This document shows positions 34,422 through 46,086 of a stretch of DNA of 64,000 bases, one piece after another. The stretch's first letter is position 1; every line of letters starts with the position of its first letter. Below the pieces are notes generated by a model. That model saw only the letters and a program-made list of their open reading frames with translations. It had not been told where the DNA came from and did not search any database. The stretch comes from Escherichia coli (GTDB taxonomy: Bacteria > Pseudomonadota > Gammaproteobacteria > Enterobacterales > Enterobacteriaceae): the NCBI RefSeq assembly GCF_045037415.1, contig NZ_CP173438.1. One strand, written 5' to 3'. Both the position numbers and the translations under genes were made by a program.

Positions 34422-34466
34422 TGGTGCCGATAATAGGAGTCGAACCTACGACCTTCGCATTACGAA
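34422..34466 (-). repeat. 45-bp direct repeat of the tRNA-Thr (thrW) 3' end; distal island boundary (att remnant)
   Basis: Identical to 46011..46055 of the intact thrW over 45 bp, then diverges. Confidence 0.8.
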
Positions 34467-34633
34467 ACCAAAAAGCATCTATTTTTCCGCATATCTACAC
34501 GTCTCTATAAATCTCATAAAAATATTAAAAATCATATAATTAAACAAAAAACCCATCTTATATTGTTCCATCGAATTTCGCTCTATACAATGCTAAACAA
34601 GTACGCCAGCAAGTACGCGAGATGAGGCCAAAA

Positions 34634-35953
34634 ATGGCAATATTGATAACCCAGGACAGGCAAGTCGCAAACCTGACTCCCCCTGAAGGAAAAAGTCGGA
34701 TAACCGTCAGCGTCAAATCAAAAGTAGGTTCCGGCCTGTCTGTCGAATCCCGTTCCGGGAGTCAAACGAAGAGCTGGATTTACCGCCCTTACCTCAACGG
34801 AAAACAGATTAAAATAACGTTAGGCTCCTACCCTGCAATGACATTGTCTCAGGCGCGTGAAGCACATGCAGACGCGCTGGCGCTGGTTAAACAAGGTATT
34901 GATCCGCGTTATGCGCGAAAAACGGAAAAACAGCAAAATGAACAAATGCCGATTTTTTCACAATTATGAAAAAACTGGCTGGCATTCCGTGAAACCAATA
35001 AACCCATTGGGGCGCGTACTCTGGCTGATTATGAGGGAACATATCGCCGCCATCTGGAGAAAGGTTTAGGTTCAGTACGCGTCTGCGACCTGTCCAGAGC
35101 CTACATTTATGAACATCTCATACGGATCAGAAAGACCAGCGCCGAAGGTGTCCGCAAGGGACTTATTCTTCTCAATATGACGCTTGACCATGCCGCTTTG
35201 CAGGGATTGATCGATCACAACCCTGCTCGCTTGCTTAAACCCGCAATGTTTGGTGCCTCAATGGGAAAACCGCGTGAGCGTTGGTTGCCACAAGACGAGT
35301 TGCAAATGTTATGGAAGGCACTGGATGAAGCGGGGTTCGGCGGCGGATCTGTCGCAACCGGAGGGCGAGGCATCGCGTCCAGCGTTATTCTTTCACAAGC
35401 GATTGCTAACGCATTACGCCTCATCATCCTGACGGGGGTGCGACGTTCCGAAGCGGTGAATATGCGTTGGGAGCAGATTAATGGCAACCGCTGGACAATA
35501 CCTGAAACCAAAAACGGTAAAAGTCATATCGTGACGCTACATCCTCTGGCGCTTTCTCTATTGAAGACTCAGCGCATTATTTCAGAAGGCGGCTGGGTAT
35601 TCGAGTCGCTCAGTAAGCCAAGTTTTCCTGTCACCGGTGACGCAATAACTCGTGCTCTTGAACGCCTGAAAACAAAATATATGGCAGAAGTCGCTCCTTT
35701 CTCACCACATGATTTACGCCGCAGCATTGCTACAGGCTGCGCTGAATATCTGGACGCACCAGAACGGCTTATAGAACTTCTGTTAAATCATGTGCCCAAA
35801 GACAGGTTAATCAGAACCTACCAGGTCGGGCAGCAAGCGGAAAAATTACGGAATCTGTTTCTGAAATGGGGGGATTTTATTGAGCATGAGATCATTGAGT
35901 CTGATAATGGTACTCCAGATAATGTTATTCAGATCAGCTTTGGAAAGAGATAG
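34634..35953 (+). pseudogene. P4-family tyrosine integrase interrupted by an in-frame TGA (codon at 34967-34969)
   Basis: N-terminus MAILITQDRQVANLTP... and C-terminal catalytic region (HDLRRSIATG...) in one frame across two ORFs (34622..34969, 35177..35953) separated only by a TGA. Confidence 0.7.
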
Positions 35954-36117
35954 TTTCGTATTTTCATGAGTAGAGATCGTCTGATAACTCAGCGATCTCT
36001 TACTCGATGGTGCTATGTATTGAATTAAATGAATATGTTTGAGTTATTGCCACGAAGTTATTCATATAACCAAAGCATCATGGCCCAATTCAGAGTCCCT
36101 GAACAGCGCTAAGAATA

Positions 36118-37038
36118 TTACTCCAGCACCCTCTCTAGCTTATTCACCGCCGCCACATACTTCGCCGGATTTTTATCTTTAAGCATCGCCAGATTGCGTT
36201 GCTTCCAGCGAATAGCCGGAAGATGCTGAATTTCAGGATAGCGATACCGCGACCAGTCAGGGCTGTTTTGCTTAAAACTGAGCAAGAACTCGCGATCCAG
36301 ATCCGTAAAATGTGACTTCAACGCCTGCGGCAGCAAAGTCGTTACTGACAGAAGCGATTCCAGCGACGTTTCCTGCTGAGTCATCCCCGAAAATTCCTGA
36401 GCGTATAACGTGGCAATCCGATCTGTATCCCAGTTTGAAGCCAGCAACTCGGCAATGGGACGGGGATGGCCTGCCAGATAACAAAGAAAACCGTCAAAAA
36501 TTTCGCGCGTCAGGCCCGGTCTCCCCAGCATATTCAACACATCAAACAGATCGCGCGGATGCTGACGATCAAGCGCAGCACATATTTTACCGCCATAAAG
36601 ATCCGCCAGCGAGACGACACTCATGGTGGTGAAGCCATACTCCATTTCCACACGTTCGCACACAGGCATTTCTGCCGGAGGCAACAACAGCCCGCGCCAG
36701 ACCGGGCTAACCTCGATCTTAATCTTTGCATCAGCGGTATTCACAATGATGCGCTTTTCATCCGCTTTATTTTCCTGCCGAATCGCGGTGATCCCCGGTC
36801 TGCCGTTCAGCGATGCAGTAATTCTCTTCAAAGCGTCGTTGATCGCCGCCAGATCGGTATCGCGATCCGCAAAGCTCTTATACGCCAGATCGATATCCAC
36901 CGATAGACGGGGGAAATCCTGCACAAATAAATTGATTGCTGTGCCGCCTTTCAACGCGAAACAGGATTCCTTCGCCACATGCGGCAGAGCGGCCATCAAC
37001 AGTTTAACCTGCCTGGCATAGCTATCACGCAGATCCAT
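36118..37038 (-). CDS. AbiEii/DUF1814-like nucleotidyltransferase (type IV toxin-antitoxin / abortive-infection toxin candidate)
   Basis: Nucleotidyltransferase motif GG-x13-DIDL (LKGGTAINLFVQDFPRLSVDIDLAY); start taken at MDLRDSY (ATG 37038), overlapping the upstream gene by 14 nt. Confidence 0.55.
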   Translation of the reverse strand: MDLRDSYARQVKLLMAALPHVAKESCFALKGGTAINLFVQDFPRLSVDIDLAYKSFADRDTDLAAINDALKRITASLNGRPGITAIRQENKADEKRIIVNTADAKIKIEVSPVWRGLLLPPAEMPVCERVEMEYGFTTMSVVSLADLYGGKICAALDRQHPRDLFDVLNMLGRPGLTREIFDGFLCYLAGHPRPIAELLASNWDTDRIATLYAQEFSGMTQQETSLESLLSVTTLLPQALKSHFTDLDREFLLSFKQNSPDWSRYRYPEIQHLPAIRWKQRNLAMLKDKNPAKYVAAVNKLERVLE

Positions 37039-37828
37039 CTTCGACTCCTTCCGGTTTAAATGTGCGGGGAACAGTAATTTGATAATCCGGCTCCAGCCAG
37101 CCACCAGGTATGATTTGCCGCTTTCCCGTACCTGTTTCTATACCGCTTTGATCAAGATACTGAAAATAAGGGTGTCCATTACGCCGGGCAAGGTAAAGCA
37201 TCACCCGGTTGGTTTTAATCGAATGACTGGCGCGAAGCAGTGCCTGCAATTTGCGTGGGCTGAGAAGATTCCCCCCCTGAAACAGAGCATCGGCATGTTC
37301 GAACGAGATCAACGAAGGAACGCCGCAGGCGATCTCATACGCGGCCAGTTCCGGTGCACTGCCTGCTAACTGCCGGTCGCCAATTTTCAGTTCCGTAGTA
37401 AATGACGAGACATCAACGGTAAGGCCCGATGTATACAGCGTGATAAATGTTGCTGATTGTTCGAAGGCAGCAAACCATCCCGGCAGTTTGACGTAAGCCG
37501 GAAGCGCGAGCCAGACCTGCGGCTTACCCGGTTCGGTATAGTGCGCATGGCCCTGAAGCGCAAGGCTGGTTAGCCCCGCCACCCGAACAGGCTTTTCCCA
37601 CTGTGTTTGAAGGCAGTAAACCGCGTCTACCCAATCCGGCTCACGGCCCGTCCGGCAGTACACACCGTGAGCGATGCGCCTGAGCCAGCCATTCTGAACA
37701 TAGAGATAAGAAAGCTTACGATCTACGCCATTGCGGGTAAGCCATGACTGGAGCAGCACCTGACCGGGTAGCGTGTTTTGCATCAACCAGTTTAGATAGT
37801 TTGGCAAATGTCGCTCCTGAATAGACAT
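37025..37828 (-). CDS. AbiEi-like antitoxin/transcriptional regulator candidate (267 aa)
   Basis: Immediately upstream of and overlapping the DUF1814-like gene, the arrangement typical of AbiEi-AbiEii pairs; family assignment from memory, not verified. Confidence 0.45.
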   Translation of the reverse strand: MSIQERHLPNYLNWLMQNTLPGQVLLQSWLTRNGVDRKLSYLYVQNGWLRRIAHGVYCRTGREPDWVDAVYCLQTQWEKPVRVAGLTSLALQGHAHYTEPGKPQVWLALPAYVKLPGWFAAFEQSATFITLYTSGLTVDVSSFTTELKIGDRQLAGSAPELAAYEIACGVPSLISFEHADALFQGGNLLSPRKLQALLRASHSIKTNRVMLYLARRNGHPYFQYLDQSGIETGTGKRQIIPGGWLEPDYQITVPRTFKPEGVEDGSA

Positions 37829-38090
37829 TAGTAGAAATATTTAAACCAGTGTAGGTTCAGGGATACGCCACAGCAAGAAATAGTTTAATGATTCCTCATT
37901 TCGTCCACTTAAAATCGACATTGAGCAAAAAATACAAACTTACCTACATTCAGGCAAAGTGCGACAAATAGACTCGGTCGGTTTAAAGAGAACGTGTAAC
38001 ATAGATGCAAATCGAACAGACATTGTTGCCAGCCGTTCCAAGGTTGTGGGGCGCTGCATGGCCTGAGACGTGATAAATACAGGGAACACA

Positions 38091-45167: not shown

Positions 45168-45176
45168 AGACGCCCT

Positions 45177-45647
45177 ATGGCTACAATCCTCATCTCTGAC
45201 TGCGATTTACTCGATCTATTGTCCGCTCCCTTCAATGCCACCACGGATTTCACCGTCCTGGCCGACTACTGCGCCCGCTTCGCCGAAACCCTGATAGAAA
45301 CCGACGATCCGGCGCTGCGGCTGGCGCTCTGCGGACGGCTTCACGCGGCTCTTGCGCTATTGCAACCCACGCTGCACGACCCCATCCCGCCGCATCTGAT
45401 TGAAAGCCTGACCGTTGATACCCTTCCCGCCACACCAGAGCACTTTATTTCCGAACCAGATTCCTTGTGCGAATACTGCCTCGCGCTGCTCCAGCTACTG
45501 CTGGAACGTCCAGCAGAGCCAAAAACGGAACAAACCCTGACCGGGCTTCTGTGTGAGCTGGTCTGGAATTTCACGGAAGGACTCAAATCCCCGCGCTGGC
45601 TGCGTACCGCCGACGGCGTAAAATTTATCAGTGAGGTGGCCGCATGA
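45177..45647 (+). CDS. Hypothetical protein, 156 aa, no recognised domain
   Basis: ATG 45177 preceded by SD aggag; the longer 217-aa ORF is a GC-rich upstream extension with no SD; Leu/Ala-rich acidic protein. Confidence 0.4.
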
Positions 45648-45792
45648 TGCAACAGGACTGACATTCCGCCGACATTATTGCGGTGCTGAAAAAGCGGGGA
45701 ACGCCTCTGGCGGCACAGAGAAAAACTCATTGCGGAAGCGCTGTAAATATCGCCAGAAATCATCTGGTCCTCAAGGTACTTTGATAGCAAAG

Positions 45793-45879
45793 GCAAGCTG
45801 GCTGGTTCAGTCCGGAGTCTCTCTTCTTGCACTTAAAGAGATGGGAGGATGGGAAACTCTTGAAATGGTTCGTCGTTAG
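45793..45879 (+). pseudogene. Remnant of a tyrosine-integrase 3' end (...[28 protein letters not shown]), copy B, next to intact thrW
   Basis: Integrase C-terminal signature truncated by TAG at the conserved Tyr codon position. Confidence 0.45.
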
Positions 45880-46010
45880 GCTCACCTTTCAGCCAGGCAT
45901 TTCACCGGGCACGCGAGCAAAATCGATGCGATTATAAGTCGCAATGGCACAAATACGGCACAAGAGGAGAACGTGGTGTATTTAAATATGGGGTAACTAC
46001 TTGATTTTAA

Positions 46011-46086
46011 TGGTGCCGATAATAGGAGTCGAACCTACGACCTTCGCATTACGAATGCGCTGCTCTACCAACTGAGCTATATCGGC
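46011..46086 (-). tRNA. thrW: tRNA-Thr (anticodon CGU), 76 nt including CCA
   Basis: Reverse complement reads GCCGATATAGCTCAGTTGGTAGAGCAGCGCATTCGTAATGCGAAGGTCGTAGGTTCGACTCCTATTATCGGCACCA; cloverleaf arms and CGT anticodon identifiable. Confidence 0.9.

Follow-up and report, generated by a model that had tools for sequence, protein, structure and literature searches.

The window analysed here, a 64,000-nucleotide stretch of Escherichia coli DNA, contains an island between the tRNA gene thrW and a partial copy of that gene. The island carries an integrase pseudogene, two anti-phage systems (an AbiE pair and the type I restriction-modification (R-M) system EcoMIII) and an immunity-type RNA module. 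Its features and immediate borders are as follows.

34264–34407, +: lambdoid (SfX/HK542-type) integrase 3′ fragment just outside the island; aligns with the thrW-adjacent fragment
34422–34466, −: distal 45-bp direct repeat, thrW 3′-end copy and att core; exact match to 46011–46055
34622–35953, +: P4-type tyrosine integrase pseudogene, likely start 34634, single opal stop at 34967–34969
36118–37041, −: abiEii, nucleotidyltransferase toxin, intact (PADLOC AbiEii, E = 4.6e-115, positions 3–289 of 290); annotated in EC958
37025–37828, −: abiEi, antitoxin and transcriptional regulator, intact (PADLOC AbiEi, E = 7.5e-78, positions 5–231 of 233)
38070–41189, +: hsdR of EcoMIII, intact (PADLOC REase_I, TIGR00348); region identical in EC958 (PMC4659465)
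41183–42820, +: hsdM (M.EcoMIII), intact (PADLOC MTase_I, E = 1.4e-304, full length; PMC4659465)
42810–43086, +: hsdS 5′ fragment, codons 1–92 (PADLOC Specificity_I PDLC03104, positions 1–92 of 415; EC958 alignment)
43087–43854, −: IS1 (768 bp; insA, insB) in hsdS
43855–44834, +: hsdS 3′ remainder; the A-run 44505–44513 is frameshifted by +1 (A9 here, A8 in EC958)
44938–45015, +: isrK-like leader RNA (Rfam RF01394: 68 bits, gathering score 50)
45037–45125, +: C4/CI-type antisense (immunity) RNA (Rfam RF01695: 71.8 bits over the full model, gathering score 45)
45129–45171, +: C4-loop targets a2 (45129–45135) and b2 (45159–45171), from 13-nt and 7-nt complementarity
45177–45647, +: ORF156, 156 aa, first gene behind the C4 RNA; conserved backbone protein
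45644–45786, +: Ner/SfsB-like HTH gene remnant (Pfam HTH_35); 65 bp deleted internally, from alignment with the intact pheV-island gene
45792–46010, +: lambdoid integrase 3′ terminus (~205 bp) and a short attP arm abutting thrW; RefSeq pseudogene
46011–46055, −: proximal repeat, the 3′ 45 nt of thrW
46011–46086, −: thrW, tRNA-Thr(CGU), intact (ARAGORN, sole tRNA found, anticodon CGT; Rfam tRNA, 71.8 bits)

The 45-mer TGGTGCCGATAATAGGAGTCGAACCTACGACCTTCGCATTACGAA occurs exactly twice (34422–34466 and 46011–46055; none in 100 shuffles) and corresponds to the thrW 3′ end. All coordinates of the preliminary description hold, as does its reading as a thrW defence island with a repeat of the tRNA 3′ end at its borders. 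In degenerate form the repeat exceeds 45 bp: ~200 bp of diverged lambdoid-integrase 3′ end precedes both copies, at a mean column identity of 80% across the full alignment. The thrW-side stub is 90–91% identical to int/attP of HK542, mEp213, mEp043, SfX and HK75. The outer fragment, whose equivalent in EC958 is a RefSeq integrase pseudogene fragment, is the ancestral thrW neighbour in empty-site genomes, 82 of which keep it beside thrW.

Apart from IS1 and one A, the sequence is 100% identical to EC958, SE15 and many other ST131 genomes. It is thus not a new island but the already published 10.8-kb GI-thrW of pandemic E. coli ST131. Totsika 2011 (PMC3203889) reports a thrW island of 10.8 kb with a type I R-M system; minus IS1, its target duplication and 1 nt, the present island measures 10,812 bp including one repeat (34467–46010 alone gives 10,767 bp). 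We are highly confident in the joint explanation, in which the interval is GI-thrW, the lineage-typical ST131 island at the thrW 3′ end, with its R-M system broken here and with a probably mosaic make-up. About 520–540 of 5,426 complete E. coli genomes (~10%) carry the island. The exact empty site was found as a single-piece match in 82 of the 5,426, from diverse lineages; four of the 82 are 100% identical to the window flanks, and one of these is labelled ST131. The yagP–proA / tRNA_Thr_CGT site is defence hotspot #33 of Hochhauser 2023, with defence in 275 of 555 genomes and AbiEii among the systems found there (PMC10121019).

Both genes of the AbiE pair match their PADLOC models end to end, which bears out their earlier reading as AbiEi/AbiEii-like, and the pair is intact as far as its sequence indicates; RefSeq starts abiEi at ~37807. 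AbiE is a type IV toxin-antitoxin abortive infection system in which AbiEii is the toxin and AbiEi the antitoxin and autorepressor. In Klebsiella pheV-island copies AbiEii and AbiEi are each 93% identical to those of GI-thrW. Our literature searches returned no report of phage defence or toxicity for this enterobacterial pair.

The type I R-M locus has an hsdS hit twice, as the preliminary description held, by IS1 and by one extra A; both breaks were placed by alignment with the intact EC958 gene. IS1 is flanked by an 8-bp target duplication, GAAGGTTA (43079–43086 and 43855–43862), and hsdS is left as three pieces of one 415-position model (1–92, 90–317 and 307–415). None of 5,426 genomes has the IS1 junction, and none of 538 carriers has the A9 frameshift; every carrier matches the A9 query at 98.8%, which fits the single-base difference from EC958. 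Both lesions are private to the present genome. The A9 run may be a homopolymer sequencing error; IS1 alone inactivates hsdS regardless. As described for EcoMIII in Forde 2015 (PMC4659465), RTACN4GTG was assigned to M.EcoMIII by knockout and SMRT sequencing, the system is experimentally active in EC958, where it methylates and restricts at this motif, and EcoMIII / RTACN4GTG is missing from only 1 of 95 ST131 genomes. In the present genome hsdR and hsdM are intact, and we infer from the sequence that EcoMIII must be inactive in both methylation and restriction, because its specificity subunit is split by IS1 and frameshifted.

The distal integrase frame (34622–35953) contains exactly one internal stop, TGG to TGA at 34967–34969, in line with the earlier account of a P4-type integrase with an in-frame stop. 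The affected position is a conserved Trp in intact homologues, which are 439–440 aa long and 79–91% identical, with Arm-DNA-bind_3 and Phage_integrase domains; identity is 25% to P4 Int and 22% to K-12 IntF. Because the sole full-length integrase has an opal stop at this Trp, GI-thrW can presumably no longer excise itself. The earlier term "immobilised" is not absolute, since low-level readthrough can occur at a UGA in place of a Trp codon. The term "decaying" describes the island as such only in part: both annotated carriers inspected, EC958 and NR1430, have the integrase stop too, whereas the hsdS lesions are confined to the present genome. GI-thrW is inherited vertically. Occasional precise loss between the 45-bp repeats appears to occur, as suggested by the four empty-site genomes identical to the window flanks.

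The thrW-proximal end is a fossil P4-type immunity region, in which a leader is followed by a C4/CI antisense RNA and then ORF156. By complementarity the leader contains the target copies a1/b1 (44963–44969 and 44979–44987), and a terminator scan placed an intrinsic terminator at 44996–45009, followed by a T run. RF01695 also matches the P4 CI RNA, and an annotated ‘ash family protein’ ORF (45041–45199) overlaps the C4 RNA. Target b2 spans the ORF156 Shine-Dalgarno sequence, AGGAG. Changes in the a′/b′ loops are matched by changes in a1/b1 and a2/b2 in seven loci, where b2 lies over the Shine-Dalgarno. Rfam hits exceed gathering scores in the window, in comparison loci L004, L008, L021, L022 and L035, and in P4; in L033 C4 and c4-a1b1 are present and isrK gave no hit. 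Both C4 loops thus pair with sequence ahead of ORF156, one of them over the ribosome-binding site, and by analogy with P1 immI and P4 CI they would silence the gene.

ORF156 has no Pfam, PHROG, PADLOC or NCBIfam match. Its AF2 model (pLDDT 91) predicts a four-helix bundle with a C-terminal hairpin, for which structure comparison returned only generic helical-bundle folds. A 156-aa ORF is indeed present at 45177–45647, but the label "orphan" given to it previously has to be dropped: it has 608 homologues (~178 clusters at 50% identity) and belongs to a conserved, apparently RNA-regulated module. These comparisons, an addition of the present analysis, make ORF156 a conserved gene of the island backbone that lies downstream of a P4-type immunity cassette. 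The intact homologue of the adjacent HTH gene is NCBIfam SfsB, and RefSeq calls the gene a pseudogene in other strains.

Rather than the single cassette proposed earlier, GI-thrW is probably a mosaic of at least three elements: (i) The distal integrase would belong to a thrW-specific family with different cargo in every genome; in its relatives homology extends no further than the stop codon, and unrelated cargo follows. (ii) A second element would be the frame AbiEii–AbiEi–[variable defence slot]–isrK–C4–ORF156–HTH; the AbiE–[defence slot]–C4–ORF156 frame also occurs at pheV in Klebsiella and Dickeya. (iii) The lambdoid phage integrase 3′ stub beside thrW would be a third; the recombinases that belonged to the frame were probably lost in the deletion that left it. 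The order AbiE–slot–C4–ORF156–HTH (65-bp deletion)–lambdoid int stub–thrW recurs in ETEC4071 and 15.TR.026, without the distal integrase or the second repeat, and homology begins exactly at the abiEii stop. We found no copy of the frame at thrW that still has an intact integrase of its own on the tRNA side, so this composite history is drawn by analogy with the pheV islands.

Descent from a single P4-like satellite is an alternative that we consider less likely. The order would have been att – int – defence hotspot – (late genes lost) – immunity RNA – left operon – att, with sid, delta, psu and alpha lost later, the thrW side clipped by a lambdoid phage, and the integrase end lost secondarily in ETEC4071-type strains. 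P4 has the same order and orientation, with attP by the start of int, cargo (cII–beta–gop) after int, then an isrK-like leader, the C4/CI RNA and the left operon towards attP; the domain architecture of the integrase is P4-type, and a distant ORF156 homologue lies between alpA and a DUF927 primase with a P4-type integrase adjoining. The relatives argue otherwise. Among the relatives examined, the pheV islands of E. coli, Klebsiella and Dickeya retain an integrase next to the frame. It lies on the HTH_35 side adjoining the tRNA, with AbiE distal to it on the cargo side in the E. coli and Klebsiella islands; the Klebsiella island with the 93% identical AbiE has this arrangement. The C4–ORF156 module was never found within 10 kb of the distal-integrase relatives examined, and the island has no psu, delta, sid, epsilon or alpha homologue. 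We favour the mosaic.

Two further readings concern the interval as a whole and hsdS. That the interval is ancestral core deleted in other lineages would suit its GC content (50.1%, indistinguishable from the flanks) and its near fixation within ST131, to judge from the EcoMIII survey cited above (PMC4659465). This reading is refuted by the exact tRNA 3′-end repeat at the borders with an integrase beside it, by carriage in only ~10% of complete genomes, by the precise empty site in diverse lineages, which shows the content not to be universally conserved core, and by the presence of CP4-6, Zorya/R-M islands or prophages at the same thrW site in other strains. It is also very improbable, if slightly less so, that the hsdS A-run is a phase-variation switch, turning R-M on and off by slipped-strand events, rather than a sign of decay. 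In favour of a switch, one base has been added to an A8 homopolymer within coding sequence, and in other genera type I hsd genes are known to be switched by homopolymer tracts; however, none of the 538 carriers has the A9 form, the additional A could stem from a sequencing error, and IS1 interrupts the gene anyway.

The island is the same as GI-thrW of EC958 (EC958_0424–0426 region) and SE15 in its flanks, integrase stop, AbiE pair, hsdR and hsdM (PMC3203889, PMC4134206, PMC4659465), and differs in an hsdS with IS1 and A8>A9, neither of which was seen in any other complete RefSeq genome searched. In a targeted term search of published GI-thrW descriptions, only type I R-M was mentioned, and AbiE, the RNA module and the flanking integrase stubs were not found. 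The AbiE pair is organised as in Lactococcus and Streptococcus agalactiae, as a two-gene overlapping operon with full-length AbiEi and AbiEii model matches. K-12 CP4-6 (262898–297205; thrW ... intF–ptwF) shares the attachment site and an integrase, intF, at the far end reading inward by a partial tRNA copy, ptwF, of which the distal 45-bp repeat is the equivalent. It differs in size (34 kb), in its unrelated cargo and in an IntF only 22% identical. Between CP4-6 and yagU, beyond the repeat, K-12 has yagP–paoDCBA, which the present window lacks; the earlier contrast with K-12 is confirmed.

The proximal module resembles the P4 immunity region (PLE leader, CI RNA) and P1/P7 immI (c4 RNA, icd–ant) in having a terminator-bearing isrK-like leader followed by a C4-family RNA, two loops facing one upstream and one downstream target pair, b2 over the Shine-Dalgarno, and co-varying pairs. 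It differs in that the regulated gene would be ORF156, for which no similarity to P4 kil, epsilon or orf151, or to icd or ant, could be detected, and in that the rest of the operon is truncated; unlike P4, GI-thrW is without replication or capsid-redirecting genes. With the ‘integrase-only’ islands of hotspot #33 the whole island shares the chromosomal site and a content of defence genes and an integrase with no other recognisable mobility genes. Hochhauser 2023 leaves the mobilisation mode of such islands open (PMC10121019). GI-thrW differs from them in the P4-type immunity RNA cassette and phage-integrase stubs of its proximal end, which point to satellite- or phage-derived remnants.

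The interval between thrW and the distal copy of its 3' end is the known genomic island GI-thrW, and the island, its R-M system and the hotspot in which it lies are already published. Totsika et al. (PMC3203889) describe GI-thrW and Forde et al. 2014 list it among the islands of EC958, an ST131 strain. Forde et al. 2015 (PMC4659465) name its type I R-M system EcoMIII (EC958_0424-0426), assign it methylation of RTACN4GTG in EC958 by knockout and SMRT sequencing, and give it as missing from only 1 of 95 ST131 genomes. Hochhauser et al. 2023 (PMC10121019) class the yagP-proA site at tRNA_Thr_CGT as defence hotspot #33, with defence systems in 275 of 555 genomes, AbiEii among them, and illustrate "integrase-only" islands there. 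In a megablast search of 5,426 complete E. coli genomes, the interval minus IS1 occurs at 100% identity in EC958, SE15, JJ2434 and many other ST131 records, and at least 80% of it is covered in 519 genomes; without the IS1, its target duplication and one extra A, the island measures 10,812 bp. GI-thrW serves as a marker of the ST131 pandemic clone, and our findings mostly confirm what is published. What is new is that the hsdS lesions are private to this genome, that a P4-type immunity RNA cassette can be recognised at ORF156, a 156-aa reading frame, and that the island probably has a mosaic anatomy.

The boundary features are:

34264-34407: distal stub, 3' end of a lambdoid integrase gene
34422-34466: distal repeat, exact second copy of the thrW 3'-end 45-mer
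34622-35953: distal integrase, a pseudogene
45792-46010: proximal stub, 3' end of a second lambdoid integrase gene
46011-46055: 3'-end 45-mer of thrW
46011-46086, minus strand: tRNA-Thr(CGT)

The tRNA gene is the only one that ARAGORN finds in the window, and because it adjoins proA and proB it is thrW. Its 45-mer has no third copy in the window and matched in none of the shuffled sequences; the preliminary description was right to read the far repeat as the thrW 3' end. The integrase frame begins 156-168 bp from that repeat. An empty site reconstructed by joining the left flank to a single repeat copy, followed by the remainder of thrW and by proA, is matched in one piece by 82 genomes; therefore the island is an insertion, precisely present or absent, and its content is not universal core. 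Because four of the empty-site genomes (S4, S12, ST131 OY019088 and FCI29, only OY019088 being labelled ST131) are 100% identical to the window flanks, GI-thrW appears to have been lost precisely between the 45-bp repeats within this lineage, despite the integrase being a pseudogene. The comparison drawn with K-12 is also borne out: CP4-6 (34 kb) occupies the same site there, with intF at its far end and yagP-paoDCBA between CP4-6 and yagU, and only about 620 bp separate the distal repeat from yagU in the window. GC content, proposed as a check on the island, gives no signal (50.1% vs 49% for the window). Farther out, between yagU and ykgJ, is a full-length match to the Rfam IS009 sRNA (193.6 bits; 32980-33180, minus strand). 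A 39-aa ORF, annotated as "tail fiber assembly protein" in EC958 RefSeq, overlaps this match, which is also found in strain 15.TR.026 (L021 603-803).

The contents first reported for the island, namely an integrase with a stop, an AbiE pair and an R-M locus with a twice-hit hsdS, are confirmed as observed, and their interpretation is supported. The abiEii and abiEi genes are adjacent and full-length (PADLOC matches over 3-289 of 290 and 5-231 of 233, respectively), both on the minus strand with a 17-bp overlap. The AbiE family consists of type IV toxin-antitoxin systems that act by abortive infection, and by analogy the intact pair would act in this way. The inverted repeats between abiEi and hsdR are weak (74-75% complementarity). 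At the R-M locus hsdR and hsdM are intact, and hsdS matches one 415-position PADLOC profile in three pieces; all three genes are intact in EC958. Alignment with the intact hsdS of EC958 locates two lesions:

43087-43854: IS1, 768 bp, with an 8-bp target duplication
44505-44513: frameshift, one extra A in an A8 run

The IS1 has the ends GGTAATGACTCC... and ...GCAGCATCACC, terminal inverted repeats and the insA and insB ORFs, and it is alone enough to kill hsdS. Its junction with hsdS is found in no other genome in the search of complete E. coli genomes, and NR1430, which also has an IS1 in its island but at another place, keeps hsdS intact. The A9 form occurs in none of the 538 genomes with the hsdS 3' region, all of which match the A9 query at 98.8%, and may be an artefact of sequencing or assembling the homopolymer instead of a genuine mutation. 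Since no carrier has the A9 run or the IS1 junction, the double inactivation is private to the window genome. The earlier picture of a decaying island is therefore only partly sustained: hsdS has been hit twice here, but both lesions are private, and the integrase stop is common to EC958 and NR1430. Without its specificity subunit, EcoMIII would form neither the M2S methylase nor the R2M2S restriction complex on DNA; HsdR and HsdM are identical to those of EC958, whose S subunit is intact. EcoMIII is thus predicted to be off in this strain, with neither methylation nor restriction at its recognition sequence, and, compared with reference ST131 strains, its loss would alter how far the cell is guarded against incoming plasmids and phages.

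The distal integrase frame has exactly one internal stop, a TGA (34967-34969) in place of a Trp that is invariant in intact homologues. It has the arm-binding and catalytic domains of the P4 type, with PF13356 and PF00589 carried by homologues of 79-91% identity, and the catalytic columns R274, H363, R366 and Y400 are invariant, P4 Int included. Cut short at residue 116 of 443, the enzyme would not be expected to support self-excision; the island could still be lost by recombination between the 45-bp repeats or through integrases supplied in trans by thrW phages. Intact relatives occupy the same position in many genomes: those in E. coli, on over 600 contigs, are 79% identical, and those in Salmonella, Klebsiella, Raoultella and Pectobacterium 86-91%; a partial tRNA copy always lies about 170 bp away. 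The cargo 3' of these relatives differs from genome to genome (a UvrD-like helicase with R-M and Zorya; Eco57I-like enzymes; TIR and Cap4 proteins; a MobA relaxase), and their downstream flanks show no common homology past the stop codon. How rich the thrW site can be is illustrated by a 26-kb island in E. coli 2018-11-3CC (L020 1612-27623), in which an intact relative precedes a UvrD/GajB-like helicase paired with a 271-aa protein, a type I R-M locus that includes a DUF4268 gene, an IS1 and a type I Zorya.

At the other end of the island, an RNA cassette precedes ORF156:

44938-45015: isrK-family RNA
45037-45125: C4 antisense RNA
45129-45135: UUAGCCU (7 nt), a2 target, complementary to the C4 a' loop AGGCUAA
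45159-45171: CGUUACAGGAGAC (13 nt), b2 target, complementary to the C4 b' loop GUUUCCUGUAACG
45177-45647: ORF156

Both RNAs score above their Rfam gathering thresholds, and there is a near-threshold c4-a1b1 match at 44925-44977. Second copies of both C4 targets lie upstream, in a leader that ends with an intrinsic terminator, so that the loops face a1/b1 on one side and a2/b2 on the other. The b2 site contains AGGAG, 7 nt 5' of the ORF156 start codon, and thus lies at the ribosome-binding site; b2 coincides with the Shine-Dalgarno sequence in all seven loci compared. In these loci both loops vary jointly with their four targets: the b' loop takes the forms CCUGUAACG, UCCAGUAAG, UCCGAUAAG, UUCCAGUAUG and UCCUGUGAA, each with its complement present, and the a' loop the forms AGGCUAA, AGACCAA, AUGCCAA and UUCUCAC. 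Because loops and targets covary, antisense control of ORF156 by the C4 RNA is a well-supported prediction from sequence. If transcribed, the cassette would leave ORF156 untranslated. A simple scan upstream of the isrK-like leader gave no sigma-70 promoter at threshold; reading of the sequence gives a weaker candidate, TTGCCG-17 nt-TATCTT, at 44904-44932. A CDS that RefSeq calls "ash family protein" (PF10554; 45041-45199) sits over the C4 RNA gene, and the old "cI gene product" CDS of P4 likewise spans the CI RNA (L027 8168-8584). The ash protein family may largely be the translation of a structured RNA gene.

ORF156 is not the orphan it had been taken for: it has 608 homologues, in about 178 clusters at 50% identity, in Escherichia, Salmonella, Klebsiella, Enterobacter, Dickeya, Pectobacterium and Brenneria. 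Searches of Pfam, PHROGs, PADLOC, NCBIfam and PDB sequences give no match, and tblastn against phages returned just one unannotated 1.5-kb record. AlphaFold confidently predicts (pLDDT 91) a bundle of four helices and, at the C terminus, a small hairpin. Fold searches gave generic bundles only, and none of the viral models searched with Foldseek scored below E=0.02; because the matches are generic, we draw no function from the structure. Kinship with P4 orf151 was considered and rejected (hhalign probability 0.2). A distant homologue (L024) lies between alpA and a DUF927 primase gene, beside a P4-type integrase, and for it no upstream C4 RNA shows up even at E<=1; thus, the link between RNA and gene holds for the enterobacterial branch rather than the whole ORF156 family.

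In E. coli, Klebsiella and Dickeya, ORF156 homologues are found at pheV in a fixed frame. Starting from tRNA-Phe, the E. coli and Klebsiella islands carry in turn a P4-type integrase, another tyrosine recombinase (Pfam Integrase_1), EFASI RNA, an HTH_35 gene, ORF156, C4, isrK and defence cargo; Dickeya keeps this order, though no Integrase_1 gene is called there and EFASI gives no match. The Klebsiella island ends in AbiEi/AbiEii genes 93% identical to the window pair, and in Dickeya no AbiE pair was seen beside the slot. The slot between AbiE and the isrK-like leader varies in content across genomes:

EFASI RNA (RF02957), between the HTH_35 and Integrase_1 genes, and contents of the slot
E. 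coli pheV island, L004 11133-11259: EFASI RNA (intact island)
Klebsiella pheV island, L008 11300-11429: EFASI RNA (intact island)
ST131 and ETEC4071: slot, type I R-M
15.TR.026, L021 12724-15933: slot, DRT UG5-nitrilase reverse transcriptase
Klebsiella, L008 7854-9412: slot, DUF4747 and 185-aa pair
E. coli pheV, L004 7135-9330: beside the isrK-like leader, PDC-S06
Dickeya pheV island, L035 1-7322: beside the isrK-like leader, type I R-M with DarT/DarG embedded

The DUF4747 and 185-aa pair could be a candidate defence system.

Several features of the thrW version bear on its origin. The Ner/SfsB-like HTH gene (HTH_35) upstream of the proximal stub has a 65-bp internal deletion (window 45644-45786 compared with the intact gene, L004 10468-10683), and the EFASI part is deleted. 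About 200 bp of diverged sequence ahead of one repeat copy is homologous to that ahead of the other (80% mean column identity across the full alignment), and RefSeq annotates these stretches as integrase fragments. The proximal stub matches, at 90-91% identity, the final ~205 bp of int together with the short adjoining attP arm of the lambdoid phages HK542, mEp213, mEp043, SfX and HK75, which integrate at thrW with int reading toward the tRNA; the distal stub is the sequence that abuts thrW in empty-site genomes, and in some genomes (L012) a whole lambdoid prophage stands at its position. At thrW, ETEC4071 and 15.TR.026 have the same frame, HTH deletion, lambdoid stub and junction as ST131, suggesting that the HTH gene had decayed before the module spread to different E. 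coli lineages. These two strains lack the distal integrase, their homology to ST131 starts exactly at the abiEii stop codon, and the loci examined contain no second thrW copy, even a degenerate one.

Tandem integrations at thrW followed by deletions are the most economical reading of this anatomy; one deletion, from inside a lambdoid int to the end of the HTH gene, would have removed the frame's own recombinases. Descent of GI-thrW from a single P4-like ancestor would agree with the order of a P4 prophage (att, int, cargo, leader, CI, operon, att). In PHROGs and NCBIfam, neither the capsid-redirection and late-control genes sid, delta and psu nor primase alpha has a counterpart among the ORFs of 34467-46010, with all the space accounted for, and we consider such descent unlikely. 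We tentatively propose, as a possibility somewhat short of even, that AbiE, a variable defence slot, isrK, C4, ORF156, HTH, EFASI, Integrase_1 recombinase, P4-type integrase and tRNA define a distinct P4-related, satellite-like family of defence islands in Enterobacterales, with ORF156 as a C4-silenced effector and GI-thrW as a decapitated member. In the literature searched, the family is apparently undescribed. If the proposal is true, it would explain part of the "integrase-only" islands that lack a mobilisation account, and ORF156 might be, e.g., a helper-phage derepressor or other switch protein released when the immunity RNA is titrated.

ORF156 and the "ash family" annotation belong to a predicted P4-type antisense-RNA switch, found again, in several genera, beside defence slots of varying content at thrW and pheV. 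Such recurrence may mean that some of the "integrase-only" defence islands are left over from phage satellites or related to them. The immunity region of phage P4 gives the same two Rfam matches (RF01394 and RF01695) above gathering scores, its C4 match being the CI RNA, and in P4, as in the window, that RNA lies behind a leader with a terminator. The layout a1/b1, c4, a2/b2 is that of the phage P1 immI region, and the window cassette has the same order, with ORF156 in the position of P4 kil or P1 icd.
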